Notes: generated by a model not told the origin, from the letters alone. A stretch of DNA of 64,000 bases from Escherichia phage Ec_Makalu_002 (MN709127.1); one strand, 5' to 3'. Positions 44,903 through 49,477 are shown, counted from the stretch's first letter. Numbers and translations are program-made.

Positions 44903-45877
44903 TTACATCGCTAACAGAGAATCCAGGTCATCCAGATCAGAAGCGGAGGAAGTACCGCCACCCAGGTCCAGAGATGCCATCAGGTCATCAGCGGAAGAAT
45001 CTAACGCCGTGCTAGCTGCGTTAATACCAACTACAGTGCTAGCTGCGGTAGTACCAGCGTCGAATGCATTCATCTGTGCGTCAAAATCATCAAGCTGGCT
45101 GTTAATCGCTGCCGCAGCACTGGAAGCCGCAGCACCAGCTACCATAGAAACGCCCATAGTTTTCTTAAATTTGGTTTCCAGTTCATCGAACGGTTTAAAC
45201 TGGCTAGGCGCTACAATCTCACTCAGATCAACCATGTTTTCCATCAGATATTTCTGATATGCTTCGTCTTCAATTTTCGGAAGCTGTGATTGCTGCATGA
45301 AACGAGAATCATCATAGTTCTGGTGTTTATCAACCTTCTTAGCTTTCAGGAGGAAGTTAGCACCGGAGAACACACAAGTTACATCTACCGGAACTTCGCC
45401 CATGTCGGTATTCACGTTAACCATCGCAACGATCTTATCATAAATTTTCTGACCGAAGCGGAATTTAAATACCTTACCTTCGTTTTCTGGTGCTTGAGGA
45501 TCTTTCAGTACCAGAATGTTTGCGTAGTAAGACGCTTTACGCTTAATCAGTTGCCATTCGGTTTTATCGGTATTGTACAAATCTTTTTCGTTAATATATT
45601 TGCACACAGGGCAAGAATCAAAATCACCGTGGGTGCTGGAGCAGTTTTCCCAATACCATTTTCCATTAACTTTGAAGGAATGGTTTACCAGTTTCACAAT
45701 CGGCAGACCGTCTTCTGTCTTAGACGGCAGGAAGCGAATCAGGGCTTCACCGTTACCTGCTGCATCAGTCTTAATCTTCCACTCTTTCGGGTCTTCTTTG
45801 GAGAAACCGTTGCCACCTTTCAGTGCGGCCAGTTGAGCTTGCAGTTTGGAAGAATCTTGACGACGGAACATGTTCAT
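44903..45877 (-). CDS. 32: single-stranded DNA-binding protein gp32
   Basis: Strong match to T4 gp32 ([34 protein letters not shown]) with an acidic Ser/Ala-rich tail. Confidence 0.95.
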
Positions 45878-45937: not shown

Positions 45938-46534
45938 TTAATTGCTTGTCAATATTTTATCAATTATATCTAACAGTTTTGGTTTTCTATTTTCAAATTC
46001 TAACATCTCTTCGGGAGAAATGTCAACTACTTCTGTTTTGTTGAAAAAGTTTGGGTCTATAGCATCAGCAACAAAGTTTCTCGCAAGTGCTGCCGCTTTC
46101 TCATGAACATATATTCCCAAATATATCAACTTCTTTCTTTCGACCTGAATATTGGCAACATATTTACCATCTCGTTTATAAAGACTAACGCCGATATATT
46201 CAGATGATCGACCTTTCTGTTTACCCATATTTCTTGAGTTTTGTTGCTCGTTCGCATCTCTCAAGTTTTCAATCCGATTATCTGTTATAATTCGGTTAAT
46301 ATGGTCAACGTATTTTGGCATGTATCCATGATGCATAAAGAAAATTATTCTATGCTCCTTATGATGTTTACCATCGATACACACCAATCTGTATCCATGA
46401 CTAGGATTAACTCCACCCGCTCTAGATCCGACTTTATGCTTTCTGTTTGTCGATATCTTGCGAATCAGCTTACCGTTATCATATTTAAAGAGTTCATGAC
46501 AACGGGCATACAATTCAGGATCATATGTTTTCAC
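45938..46534 (-). CDS. HNH homing-endonuclease-like protein with AP2-type DNA-binding domain
   Basis: His-Me finger motif YVDHINRIITDNRIENL, then EYIGVS...KLIYLGIY...AAALARNF. Confidence 0.65.
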   Translation of the reverse strand: MKTYDPELYARCHELFKYDNGKLIRKISTNRKHKVGSRAGGVNPSHGYRLVCIDGKHHKEHRIIFFMHHGYMPKYVDHINRIITDNRIENLRDANEQQNSRNMGKQKGRSSEYIGVSLYKRDGKYVANIQVERKKLIYLGIYVHEKAAALARNFVADAIDPNFFNKTEVVDISPEEMLEFENRKPKLLDIIDKILTSN

Positions 46535-47198
46535 CTTTTAACCTCGATATTTCTTTACACTCTTTAACTACTTTAACAAATAATGCTCTTGCTTTTGTGG
46601 CGTCAATAACAAGTAGTTTCTTGTACGCCTTCATTTTAACACTATAAGTTTGCCAAATCAAGTCTTTGGCTACCTTGTCGTGTTCGTCGATTATATTTAG
46701 AAAGCTATCTAACAACATAAACGACTCAAACGATATAATCCGATTTTGCAGTAGTTTAAAGATACCGCTAGTTTCGGTTGCGGGATTGTATGTAATTAGC
46801 TCTTTAAGAGTAACCCCGCGTTTCTCTGAGAAATATACAAGACTTTTAATGTCATCGTCAAATCGTGTTGCCGCATCGGTTATCTTTCCTATGTATTCCA
46901 TATAAAAGCCGTATGCGTCAACATCAGTGATTTCACCTACCCATGCATCGGTATTAGCTACCAGATTGCTTAGGAATAGGAAGTATAATTCTCTTAGATT
47001 GTACTTTTCCGCTAATTTCGCGAAATAATACTTATCTCTGCGTTTATTGAATGCGGCATCAGATAACCGCATCCTCCAATTGTATTTTACGCAATCATAA
47101 CGCCCGTTCATATGAGCTTTCATCATGCAATATAACATATACACAGATTTAGCATTAATTCGCATATCTGGATCTGGAGGAAGACGGTTTCTGATCAT
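46521..47198 (-). CDS. 59: helicase loader gp59
   Basis: 225 aa; aligns with T4 gp59 (GKSVY.LY.M...HMNG.YD..KYNW.MR.SDAA). Confidence 0.92.
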   Translation of the reverse strand: MIRNRLPPDPDMRINAKSVYMLYCMMKAHMNGRYDCVKYNWRMRLSDAAFNKRRDKYYFAKLAEKYNLRELYFLFLSNLVANTDAWVGEITDVDAYGFYMEYIGKITDAATRFDDDIKSLVYFSEKRGVTLKELITYNPATETSGIFKLLQNRIISFESFMLLDSFLNIIDEHDKVAKDLIWQTYSVKMKAYKKLLVIDATKARALFVKVVKECKEISRLKGENI

Positions 47199-47207
47199 AC
47201 ATACCCC

Positions 47208-47477
47208 TTAAATATCGAGAGTGTTGGTCGGTTCGTCGATCACTCCCTTCCTGAGCGTTCTATTTACTATACATTCTTGTGTGATCTTGTCAATAATGGA
47301 CACCGGAATATACTTCTGATAGTGACCATATTCGATAGAGTTTTCCTCTACAAACTGAGTGGTCGCTTCAAGATAAGTCAATCCCTCTTCAACAACCAGT
47401 TTTTCGATTGCAAGACCGTTTGCTGTTTTGTTCGCGGCTTTTACCGCATGTTCATTAAGCATTGAACACCCGATCAT
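47208..47477 (-). CDS. 33: late-transcription accessory protein gp33 (by synteny)
   Basis: 89 aa between 59 and dsbA; C-terminal ...TNTLDI fits a clamp-binding tail. Confidence 0.55.
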   Translation of the reverse strand: MIGCSMLNEHAVKAANKTANGLAIEKLVVEEGLTYLEATTQFVEENSIEYGHYQKYIPVSIIDKITQECIVNRTLRKGVIDEPTNTLDI

Positions 47478-47730
47478 AGAGTTCTACCGCTTCGTCGCGT
47501 TCTGCTTCGAAGGTTTCGCGCTGTTGCTGGTGATATAGTTTAAACAGAATACCCCACATTTTACCATCTACGCCTAATTCTTCTTTAGCACGCTGTTTGA
47601 TCTCTTTGATCTTATCGCCATATGCTTCTTGAATGGTTTTCTGATCGCTGGCTTCTTTAATCAGTTGTGCCAGTGTATTTCCGTGTACTGCTTCATCAAA
47701 TACTACTTTTTCTTTTTTCTGTTCAGTCAT
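47455..47730 (-). CDS. dsbA: DsbA dsDNA-binding protein (by synteny)
   Basis: 91 aa, charged helical; T4 position between 33 and rnh. Confidence 0.55.
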   Translation of the reverse strand: MTEQKKEKVVFDEAVHGNTLAQLIKEASDQKTIQEAYGDKIKEIKQRAKEELGVDGKMWGILFKLYHQQQRETFEAERDEAVELYDRVFNA

Positions 47731-47734
47731 AATA

Positions 47735-48331
47735 TTAACCCTCTTTAGTCATTAATTGAAAACCACGTTCAGCTTTTGAGATTTCGCTAGGACTTAAATC
47801 GTCACCCACATATTCTAGCATCATTTCTCGGATAATGTCAAGTGCTTTTTCATCACCTGATTTTAACTCGAACTCAAGTTCATAGTGAGCCTCTCCCATT
47901 CTTTCGCCGACTTTGCAATAATAGAAAGTGTCTTTGCACATTTCCACTATAGCACCCTCAAGGTCAAGTGTCAATGACTTGCGGTATGTCATTACTTGCA
48001 ATAAAGGAACGATAAGGTCGGAGTTTACGCCTAGACTATCAACATAATGATAGAAATCATCCATTGTTGAAAAAGTGATTTCTTCTCGGTTGAATAGTCC
48101 AGATTCACTATCACCTATTTTGACCATGATCAATGATCTATTAACGTCAAGTCGAGCATAAATTCCTTTTCGACGCAGTGCATGATCTTCGGTATCATAA
48201 TAAAATTCGTGTTTTAGTGTGTTAGCATGATCTACGATATTGTACCCGTCATACATTGCTACCAACAAATCACAGATTGTTTCGACGCCAATTTGTGAGT
48301 GTGCATAGTATTTTAATTCAAGTTCTTTCAT
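47735..48331 (-). CDS. CYTH-like (triphosphate tunnel metalloenzyme) protein
   Basis: N-terminal ELELKY, central R-x-R (ALRRKGIYARLDVNR), C-terminal YELEFELK; 198 aa. Confidence 0.5.
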   Translation of the reverse strand: MKELELKYYAHSQIGVETICDLLVAMYDGYNIVDHANTLKHEFYYDTEDHALRRKGIYARLDVNRSLIMVKIGDSESGLFNREEITFSTMDDFYHYVDSLGVNSDLIVPLLQVMTYRKSLTLDLEGAIVEMCKDTFYYCKVGERMGEAHYELEFELKSGDEKALDIIREMMLEYVGDDLSPSEISKAERGFQLMTKEG

Positions 48332-48341
48332 ATGTCAACCC

Positions 48342-49289
48342 TTAGAACTCACCAATTTTCTGCAACATTTTAACTAACGCATTTGTTACAAAATAGTTAT
48401 AAATTTTACCGCGTGGTGCTGGTTTAGATTTCTCCCATGCTAACAAAATTTCATATTCGATGTTATCAGGAATAAATTCAAAATCAATAAGTTCGCGGTT
48501 TTCGTCAAAGCGTCGTGCTTCTTCCTCTGTCATCAAAGACTTTGGATCTTCGGCATCGAAAATTTGCTCTAACCATTTGGTTGCAATTGGTTTAGCTCGT
48601 TCCCCTTCCAGTCGTGAGATAATGAAATCACTACGGCACTTGATAGAAGCTACACCGTCTTTTGCGTCACCCTTAACACATTTTACCATAAGGTCTTTGT
48701 AAGGACTACCATATTTGCATTTCTTCCATGCTTTCTGTACTGGTGCCCACTGTTTCACATTTTTGTATTTGTGCAACTGTGTGTAGTCACCATCGCCGGA
48801 GTTGATTAGCACTTGGCGACCTTCTACAGAAAACTTTTTAGTTAACACAGCGATTATATCATCCGCTTCAACTTTGTCAACCTTAATAACGTGATAAGGC
48901 ATGTTCTCTTTAAACTCTTCGGTGATCTTATTGATCGCAGCAAAGATCATATCCCAATCACGCGGATCTGCGTCTCGTTTTTCCTTACGGTTGCGTTTAT
49001 AGTAAGGTGCGATATCACGTCGCCAGTAACCTTTGCTTGAATCAAAGGCAAGTACCGTAATTGGGTATTGCTCTTTGAATTTTGTCATATTATAACGCAT
49101 GGTGTCAAGAATAAGATGACGGATCATACCTTCACTAATAGGATCTTCCGGTTTAAAGGTATGCGAGATAGTAGCAATCATAAGCTGCGACATATCAATC
49201 AAATGCACACCTTCCGGTAGTTTATCTTCTGGATCATCGAAGAAATCATTAAGTGTAGCGGTCGTTTTTGTAAACGGGTTATACGTCAT
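48342..49289 (-). CDS. rnh: RNase H / 5'-3' flap exonuclease
   Basis: 315 aa; aligns with T4 RNase H (GYWRRD, KVDKVEADDIIAVL, FTQLHKY.NVKQW). Confidence 0.92.
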   Translation of the reverse strand: MTYNPFTKTTATLNDFFDDPEDKLPEGVHLIDMSQLMIATISHTFKPEDPISEGMIRHLILDTMRYNMTKFKEQYPITVLAFDSSKGYWRRDIAPYYKRNRKEKRDADPRDWDMIFAAINKITEEFKENMPYHVIKVDKVEADDIIAVLTKKFSVEGRQVLINSGDGDYTQLHKYKNVKQWAPVQKAWKKCKYGSPYKDLMVKCVKGDAKDGVASIKCRSDFIISRLEGERAKPIATKWLEQIFDAEDPKSLMTEEEARRFDENRELIDFEFIPDNIEYEILLAWEKSKPAPRGKIYNYFVTNALVKMLQKIGEF

Positions 49290-49291
49290 AA

Positions 49292-49477
49292 TTAAGTTCT
49301 CTCCACTCTCACAACAACAGACTCATCAAACGAGTTAGATACTTCACGGTCATACCCGTATTTCTCCATAACTCGCAGAATTGCATTGTTTAATTCGGCA
49401 CGGAAATAATTATAATCCTTATCAGGGATTCTGTCAACTACCCATTTTGCACCTTCTGACAAATCAACTTTAACCAT
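49292..49477 (-). CDS. hypothetical protein (61 aa)
   Basis: Track ORF directly upstream of rnh. Confidence 0.45.
   Translation of the reverse strand: MVKVDLSEGAKWVVDRIPDKDYNYFRAELNNAILRVMEKYGYDREVSNSFDESVVVRVERT

Follow-up and report, generated by a model that had tools for sequence, protein, structure and literature searches.

A candidate stand-alone triphosphate tunnel metalloenzyme encoded between rnh and dsbA of Krischvirus phages

A 64,000-nucleotide (nt) stretch of Escherichia phage Ec_Makalu_002 (MN709127.1), here called the window, carries a gene for a 198-amino-acid (aa) protein of the CYTH superfamily between the RNase H gene rnh and dsbA. The gene product is likely a stand-alone triphosphate tunnel metalloenzyme (TTM), i.e., a YgiF-like gammaproteobacterial tunnel domain that lacks CHAD and favors an organic triphosphate. 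A lytic phage lineage has long kept a TTM at a fixed spot of its replication and late-transcription cluster, with the catalytic residues preserved and the lining of the tunnel changed. The physiological roles of CYTH proteins and TTMs are poorly understood even in Escherichia coli, and the cellular role of inorganic triphosphate (PPPi) is unclear. The Krischvirus TTM represents a tractable system for finding the in vivo substrate of such enzymes.

The CYTH domain call itself is not new and was published in 2003-2006. The GenBank/RefSeq record of phage RB49 annotates the orthologue RB49p245 with similarity to ygiF, and the table of Nolan et al. (2006) lists RB49ORF244c as a CYTH domain with an E value of 0.0026 (PMC1524935). 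The PHROGs entry phrog_14893 gives the function as unknown, and a few recent records label the gene "adenylate cyclase" or "inorganic triphosphatase," the latter being used in one record (hit H31). In full-text literature searches, nothing turned up apart from the domain table of 2006 and a general comment about CYTH triphosphatases of jumbo phages; they contained no experimental report on phage CYTH function, a link to defense, or RB49 expression data, and no report of a phage CYTH protein in counterdefense. Taken as a whole, the gene encodes a functionally uncharacterized accessory enzyme that is ordinary-looking and whose domain was catalogued before. New are the failed cyclase signatures, the YxRxD variant of the tunnel, the deep synteny, and the mosaicism of an allele cassette.

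Family membership and predicted active site

The protein begins with MKELELKYYAHSQ and ends with QLMTKEG, and no rival open reading frame (ORF) of at least 40 aa overlaps positions 47735-48331 when both strands are scanned. It matches the Pfam profile CYTH (PF01928) with 30.1 bits, above the gathering cutoff of 23.2, and residues 1-190 cover profile positions 1-178 of 179. Alignment with hhalign to a profile of 88 canonical TTMs and YgiF gave a probability of 99.9% and an E value of 5.8e-35. An AlphaFold2 model computed from a 17-sequence family alignment (predicted local distance difference test, 91.7; predicted template modeling score, 0.84) shows the expected strands and helices of a beta-barrel tunnel with eight strands. 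YgiF is the closest solved structure by a wide margin, and among predicted viral structures none outside Krischvirus was close to the phage protein. A search with NCBIfam profiles returned no match, and a CHAD domain was not matched by Pfam, the protein ending at residue 198. The Pfam score, orthologues in 58 of 58 Krischvirus records, and a ratio of nonsynonymous to synonymous substitution rates (dN/dS) of about 0.4, i.e., purifying selection, bear out the 198-aa CYTH protein that a first-pass annotation had proposed from the sequence alone.

The two glutamate motifs named in that annotation, ELELK (residues 3-7) and ELEFELK (residues 151-157), are present in the translation. The first corresponds to ExExK, with E3 and E5 as predicted metal site 2 glutamates and K7 as a predicted phosphate-binding lysine, and is invariant in all 45 members of the phage clade, as are E151, E153, and E155 of the second. 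According to both phmmer and hhalign, E3, E5, and E155 align to YgiF E4, E6, and E162, and E153 aligns to E160. In YgiF, E4, E6, and E162 form metal site 2 and position the attacking water, and E160 belongs to metal site 1, which is bound jointly with the substrate (PMC4641920). The SKAERG segment of the C-terminal helix, whose conserved basic residues are expected to close the tunnel, has its lysine in all 146 canonical relatives and its arginine in 130; in the phage clade, S185, K186, E188, R189, and G190 are invariant. The full set of positions without exception among the 45 members, which reach down to 30% identity, comprises E3, E5, K7, Y8, Y9, K40, Y44, D46, R60, K71, G78, R82, E84, R117, C132, and Y138 together with the eight residues just named in the glutamate motif and the helix. 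The two-metal site is complete, and the enzyme looks catalytically competent on these alignments. Both the CYTH fold and the metal-binding glutamates, on which the first-pass annotation had made its proposal depend, were accordingly found, the former by the profile match and the latter as invariant E3, E5, E153, and E155.

The metal- and triphosphate-binding roles of the residues in YgiF and AtTTM3 were set by crystal structures and mutagenesis (PMC4641920), and by homology to these enzymes a reaction can be proposed for the phage protein. A triphosphate-bearing substrate would thread into the beta-barrel, where metal 1 would be held by E153 and the substrate, and metal 2 by E3, E5, and E155, the latter metal activating the water that attacks the terminal phosphate. 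R60 would act as the catalytic arginine, and K7, K71, R82, R117, K186, and R189 would bind the phosphates. Such an Mg2+/Mn2+-dependent hydrolysis of the terminal phosphate would yield inorganic phosphate and the diphosphate form of the substrate.

Tunnel lining and substrate class

The YgiF-type inorganic triphosphatase (PPPase) carries a canonical RxR on strand beta-3, in place of which the phage protein has YxRxD (Y58, R60, and D62). The central arginine cluster of the first-pass annotation hence survives in part: the stretch ALRRKGIYARLD holds the functional arginine R60, but the motif is not the canonical RxR and retains only one of two arginines. By alignment, R60 would be the equivalent of the catalytic (first) arginine, D62 would replace the second one, and Y58 stands two residues ahead of R60. 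This register was obtained with MAFFT and 16 relatives, with hmmalign to a hidden Markov model of 88 canonical TTMs plus YgiF, and with profile-profile hhalign, all three of which agree, and the block D-x-A-L-R-x-x-G-x-x-x-R upstream of the dyad aligns without gaps. The idea that Y58 substitutes for the catalytic arginine, in the manner of the loss in class IV adenylate cyclases, was rejected, as the three profile-based alignments place R60 on the first arginine.

Tunnel positions were compared between the 146 nearest nonphage canonical CYTH relatives and the 45 members of the phage clade. Position 62, the second arginine, is R in 142 of the 146 relatives and D in 44 of the 45 phage sequences, the remaining one having N. 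At position 58 (-2 with respect to the first arginine), the relatives have a small residue (A, S, G, or T in 131/146), and the phage clade has Y (42/45). Similar exchanges are found at position 136 (G in 112/146 relatives, F in the clade), position 69 (T in 131/146, M or L in the clade), and position 149 (I in 82/146, H in the clade). These swaps at positions 58, 62, 69, 136, and 149 suggest a tunnel that is less basic and more crowded by aromatic side chains. With D62 in place of the second arginine and Y58, M69, F136, and H149 in place of small tunnel residues, an organic triphosphate is a more likely substrate than free PPPi, be it a nucleotide, the 5' end of an RNA, or a compound of the thiamine type. 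In thiamine triphosphatases (ThTPases), a specific aromatic residue at the position equivalent to Y58 stacks the organic moiety (PMC8233210).

Several points weigh against this reading. In AtTTM3, the exchange R54A, which removes the second arginine, has little effect on PPPase activity (PMC4641920), so that PPPi may still be a substrate in spite of the lost arginine. The aromatic residue at position 58 is no requirement across the clade, since the two members most remote from the others have V or I there. Pairwise phmmer gives another register, with Y58 on the catalytic arginine R56 of YgiF, and one arginine of the aligned dyad is missing under either register. The distant homologue P0044 lacks D134, having Tyr where all 146 cellular relatives have Asp, and may be an inactive or respecialized variant; the same protein has Val at positions 58, 136, and 157. 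Finally, the synteny with rnh may stem from inheritance of the site of insertion and not from a link in function.

A plain inorganic triphosphatase, which would reproduce the activity of YgiF in the phage and clear PPPi (e.g., from dNTP triphosphohydrolases) during infection, is a somewhat doubtful reading. YgiF, by far the nearest solved structure, is itself a specific PPPase that prefers PPPi over nucleoside triphosphates, pyrophosphate, and polyphosphate (PMC3440374); the metal sites and the equivalent of the catalytic arginine are preserved, AtTTM3 tolerates the loss of the second arginine, and record H31 already bears this name. Against this stand the charge reversal from arginine to D62 and the bulkier lining, which are kept throughout the clade, and the absence of a CHAD domain. 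Moreover, PPPase activity in E. coli stems mainly from the abundant inorganic pyrophosphatase, and a ygiF deletion leaves the PPPase activity of extracts unchanged (PMC3440374), so that a plain PPPase of the phage would be redundant in view of the ample supply by the host. Provided that the protein is a hydrolase, a nucleotide or an RNA 5' end, including an immune or alarmone nucleotide, is a plausible substrate, though hardly one to be taken for granted; PPPi is a somewhat weaker candidate, and a thiamine-type compound is an improbable one.

Distribution, mosaicism, and genomic context

A tblastn search of 50,697 phage records matched the protein in 58, all of them Krischvirus (RB49, Phi1, JSE, GEC-3S, and others), with identities to the window protein of 81-98.5% and one of 58% (phage Skers, also a Krischvirus). 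The neighboring RNase H was matched in 1,715 of the same records, exactly 58 of which reached at least 90% identity, and this agreement indicates that the CYTH gene is universal in Krischvirus. Among these phage records, no sequence match to the gene was detectable in cultured T4-like phages outside the genus, and when the distant homologues P0044 and P0045 served as tblastn queries, the same 58 records were recovered and nothing further. The gene is unbroken in 57 of the 58 records; in phage G2494 (MK327935, hit H15), it matches in two pieces annotated as two hypothetical proteins, which suggests a frameshift. Only 43 relatives emerged when 5.8 billion proteins were searched by word index, and when 1.84 billion cluster representatives were scanned in full by HMMER with the family profile, 222 matches were obtained at an E value of <=1e-3, only 6 of them at <=1e-10. 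The phage CYTH clade is therefore a small, isolated island in sequence space. Among the carriers are phages SAP (OZ034687) and TB34 (OX001802), whose CYTH genes show 82.9% identity. According to a 2026 paper, these two phages are 99.96% identical and differ in modified versus canonical cytosines without known modification genes (PMC13390438); this difference has no known link to the CYTH gene and shows that the nucleotide metabolism of Krischvirus is incompletely understood.

Beyond the cultured phages, three close matches, namely, P0043 (44% identity), P0044 (35%), and P0045 (30%), came from short metagenomic contigs. The order CYTH-dsbA-gp33 is seen on each of these contigs, and rnh directly precedes the CYTH gene on the two with upstream sequence (L005 and L007), the contig L006, on which P0044 is encoded at positions 32-601, beginning at the CYTH gene. 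Across the loci compared, rnh lies upstream in L001, L002, L004, L005, and L007, and dsbA lies downstream in L001-L007. The dsbA, gp33, and rnh sequences of the metagenomic contigs are 70-83% identical to those of the window, those of T4 50-59%. The synteny shared with these diverged lineages indicates that the insertion predates the genus Krischvirus and stayed put, and the CYTH gene is a long-time resident of the RB49/Krischvirus lineage. A recent horizontal acquisition was ruled out by this old synteny, by a GC content equal to that of the flanks, and by the nearest cellular relatives being only about 25-30% identical to the phage protein.

Evolution of the gene is about four times faster than that of the genes next to it. 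In a sliding-window comparison with Skers, nucleotide identity is 97-100% in the flanks (rnh, dsbA, and gene 33), about 50% in the core of the CYTH gene, and 95-97% in its last 150 nt. Synonymous sites are saturated in the core (proportion of synonymous differences, 0.80), compared with a synonymous divergence (dS) of 0.10-0.17 in the flanking genes and a flank-like dS of 0.03-0.19 in the conserved 3' block. A saturated core between near-identical flanks points to an old, diverged allele that recombined into a near-identical genome, and the breakpoints fall inside the conserved coding blocks for ExExK and ExExE. The identity of the C terminus is not a special constraint at the protein level, an interpretation that was rejected because the last 50 codons are near-identical at synonymous sites, too. 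The CYTH allele class assorts independently of the rnh allele, e.g., the RNase H and CYTH proteins show 99.7% and 82.9% identity, respectively, in Makalu_001 and 99.0% and 98.5% in FL15. For the less diverged alleles, dN/dS is 0.42-0.43 in the core, 0.09-0.12 in rnh, and 0-0.1 in dsbA. The gene is thus under purifying selection that is nevertheless clearly relaxed or diversified in comparison with the neighbors, with no evidence of positive selection, and this pattern fits an accessory, possibly host-facing gene. Within rnh itself, a patch of codons ~258-287 differs from the rest of the gene, which is 92-100% identical to RB49, Phi1, and Skers; 36 other records have an RNase H at least 99% identical to that of the window, and the patch is therefore regarded as a second mosaic allele, which is shared and lies near the CYTH gene.

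The relaxed constraint could also suggest a noncatalytic binder, i.e., a sponge or regulator whose tunnel serves only to sequester a phosphorylated ligand, or else an accessory gene in decay. The missing D134 of P0044, the split gene in the G2494 record, and the common occurrence of phage proteins that act as sponges for nucleotide signals agree with such a role. It is nonetheless very doubtful, since four metal glutamates and the catalytic arginine equivalent are invariant in 45 sequences down to 30% identity, a constraint that binding alone does not need, and the gene is whole in all records but one. The same fast evolution and allele swapping would, in a more far-reaching proposal, be the mark of a host-phage conflict that involves a phage-specific TTM subclass whose remodeled tunnel, with one arginine, an additional aspartate, and aromatic residues, was retuned from inorganic triphosphate to a nucleotide-type triphosphate (a 5'-triphosphate RNA or primer end, an alarmone, or an immune nucleotide). 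This proposal is speculative and rather unlikely; if true, the protein would be the first phage counterdefense or RNA-end-remodeling enzyme of the triphosphate tunnel class.

The coordinates of the gene and its neighbors (Table 1), together with flanks identified by Pfam, confirm that an ORF is inserted between dsbA and rnh, as the first-pass annotation had stated; its remark that T4 has no gene at this spot was likewise correct, rnh and dsbA of T4 being 8 nt apart with no gene in the gap. In the window, the minus-strand genes form a tightly packed string (61-aa ORF, rnh, CYTH gene, dsbA, 33, 59, HNH endonuclease, and 32), in which 10 nt separate the rnh stop from the start of the CYTH gene and 4 nt separate the end of the latter from the dsbA ATG. 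Between positions 47000 and 49700, 18 sigma70-like sites were found on both strands, compared with 9.0 +/- 3.0 in shuffled sequences; 14 of them are on the minus (coding) strand, and six carry a perfect TTGACA. No late promoter faces the CYTH gene, the only one nearby, TATAAATA, facing gene 34 on the other strand, and the RB49 record has no promoters annotated in this region. The sigma70-like sites and the tight spacing suggest early cotranscription with the neighbors, and the CYTH gene is probably transcribed early together with rnh, dsbA, and gene 33.

Table 1. Positions of the CYTH gene, its predicted functional and evolutionary segments, candidate expression signals, and neighboring genes in the window
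Feature	Position	Strand	Remarks
CYTH/TTM gene	47735-48331	minus	198 aa, ATG-to-TAA ORF; orthologue of RB49p245/RB49ORF244c; phrog_14893
ExExK (E3, E5, K7)	48311-48325	minus	ELELK; aligns to YgiF E4/E6/K8; predicted metal site 2 glutamates and phosphate-binding Lys
YxRxD (Y58, R60, D62)	48146-48160	minus	Translates to YARLD; in place of canonical xxRxR
ExExExK (E151, E153, E155, K157)	47861-47881	minus	ELEFELK; E151/E153/E155 align to YgiF E158/E160/E162
SKAERG (S185, K186, R189)	47762-47779	minus	C-terminal helix; conserved basic residues predicted to close the tunnel
Variable core	47891-48307	minus	Codons ~10-148; exchanged allele cassette; ~50% nt identity to Skers
Conserved 3' block	47735-47890	minus	Codons ~149-198; shares dsbA history; 95-100% nt identity to RB49, Phi1, and Skers
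Shine-Dalgarno-like AAGGG	48339-48343	minus	Reads GAGTTCTAAGGGTTGACATATG; 7 nt ahead of CYTH ATG; overlaps rnh stop
Sigma70-like site	49506-49478	minus	Divergent region upstream of 61-aa ORF
Sigma70-like site	49437-49409	minus	Perfect 12/12; inside 61-aa ORF
Sigma70-like site	48880-48853	minus	Perfect 12/12; inside rnh
Sigma70-like site	48338-48310	minus	Straddles CYTH start codon
Sigma70-like site	47841-47812	minus	In conserved 3' end of CYTH gene, upstream of dsbA
61-aa ORF	49292-49477	minus	phrog_3594; no Pfam match
rnh	48342-49289	minus	T4-type RNase H/5'-3' exonuclease; Pfam RNaseH_C and 5_3_exonuc_N
rnh patch	~48428-48517	minus	Codons ~258-287; 63-70% nt identity to RB49, Phi1, and Skers
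dsbA	47455-47730	minus	Late-transcription double-stranded DNA-binding protein; Pfam Phage_DsbA
Gene 33	47208-47477	minus	Pfam or PHROG match
Gene 59	46521-47198	minus	Pfam or PHROG match
HNH endonuclease	45938-46534	minus	HNH/AP2-type homing-endonuclease ORF, 198 aa; Pfam or PHROG match
Gene 32	44903-45877	minus	Pfam or PHROG match

Two neighboring ORFs deserve mention in their own right. The 61-aa ORF between gene 34 and rnh is kept in RB49, Phi1, and Skers, and an 85-aa ORF stands in its place on the sister-lineage contig L005. The HNH/AP2-type ORF between genes 32 and 59 shares 14 nt with the end of gene 59 and is found at the same place in Skers, but it is absent from RB49 and Phi1, and the equivalent slot of T4 holds the unrelated GIY-YIG endonuclease gene segG. 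Mobile endonucleases have thus landed repeatedly in the slot between genes 32 and 59.

Comparison with known triphosphate tunnel enzymes

Three CYTH-function signatures were taken from Vogt et al. (PMC8233210). Class IV adenylate cyclases are characterized by HFxxxxExExK, a small residue in place of the first arginine, and ExA instead of ExE (PMC8233210). None of the three was found in the phage protein: the HF motif for adenine stacking is absent, only M1 and K2 preceding E3; R60 is kept (in the minority phmmer register, the residue is Tyr, which is not small); and E155 is kept and invariant. CyaB (YpAC-IV, PDB 2fjt/3n10) has the HF motif and ExA and loses the first arginine, whereas the phage protein has neither and loses the second arginine. 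YgiF, the nearest relative, has no cyclase activity, either (PMC3440374). A cyclase whose cyclic AMP reprograms the host, as annotated in a few GenBank records, is therefore the least credible of all the readings, and the label "adenylate cyclase" is unsupported. Since it is spreading in records of Krischvirus, a candidate for phage therapy, "CYTH domain/triphosphate tunnel metalloenzyme" would be the better name.

ThTPases are marked by W/YxRxR, the aromatic residue of which stacks the thiazole (PMC8233210). In the phage protein, the aromatic residue (Y58, 42/45) and the first arginine of this motif are present, and the second arginine is Asp; the most distant members have V or I at the aromatic position. 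The mammalian enzyme THTPA (PDB 3bhd and 5a64) thus has W/YxRxR compared with YxRxD in the phage, at an identity of about 14-18%. A hydrolase of thiamine triphosphate or adenosine-thiamine-triphosphate, which would remove a host metabolite associated with starvation, is highly unlikely in view of the missing arginine, the V or I of the distant members, and the lack of a known benefit for the phage.

The Cet1-type RNA triphosphatases (mimivirus, vaccinia D1, Cet1, and Pct1) likewise have a triphosphate tunnel with two-glutamate motifs, include enzymes of viral origin, and act on 5'-triphosphate RNA. The phage protein, too, might be a 5'-triphosphatase of RNA or hydrolyze a nucleotide that bears a triphosphate, acting on RNA ends of host or phage, on primer ends next to RNase H, or on an immune or alarmone nucleotide (e.g., dITP or pppGpp), so as to aid infection or evade defense. 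This idea, which comes close to the function suggested in the first-pass annotation, is unlikely, though less so than the thiamine reading. The protein had no match to a Cet1-like family, and its closest structural similarity was not to Cet1-type tunnels but to bacterial enzymes of the PPPase type, which are also its nearest relatives. The PADLOC models of antiphage defense gave no match at an E value of <=1, in a search that covered libraries of defense but not antidefense proteins, and the literature searches revealed no phage CYTH protein tied to defense. Most known immune signals, i.e., cyclic oligonucleotides and cyclic ADP-ribose isomers, have no triphosphate, and a dN/dS below 1 does not show positive selection. 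The role in anti-immunity is hence possible, unsupported by the present analysis, and at odds with cyclic oligonucleotide signals, and the interpretation of the first-pass annotation is partly supported. The significance of the gene would be considerably higher if the 5' end of an RNA or an immune nucleotide proved to be the substrate.

The preferred reading, a stand-alone TTM that favors an organic triphosphate, is best placed by comparison with the bacterial enzymes. YgiF of E. coli (PDB 5a60/5a61) is a CYTH-CHAD inorganic triphosphatase of 433 aa, whereas the phage protein comprises 198 aa without CHAD. Its second tunnel arginine, R58, is Asp in the phage protein, where positions 58, 69, 136, and 149 are bulkier, and the identity between the two of only 23-24% argues against a recent capture of the host gene. 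Bacterial TTMs that stand alone and comprise about 200 aa (e.g., HI1598-like proteins; BH2851, PDB 2gfg) keep RxR (142/146) with a small residue at -2. The phage clade differs from them in both respects, and YxRxD provides a simple marker of the CYTH clade of the Krischvirus lineage.
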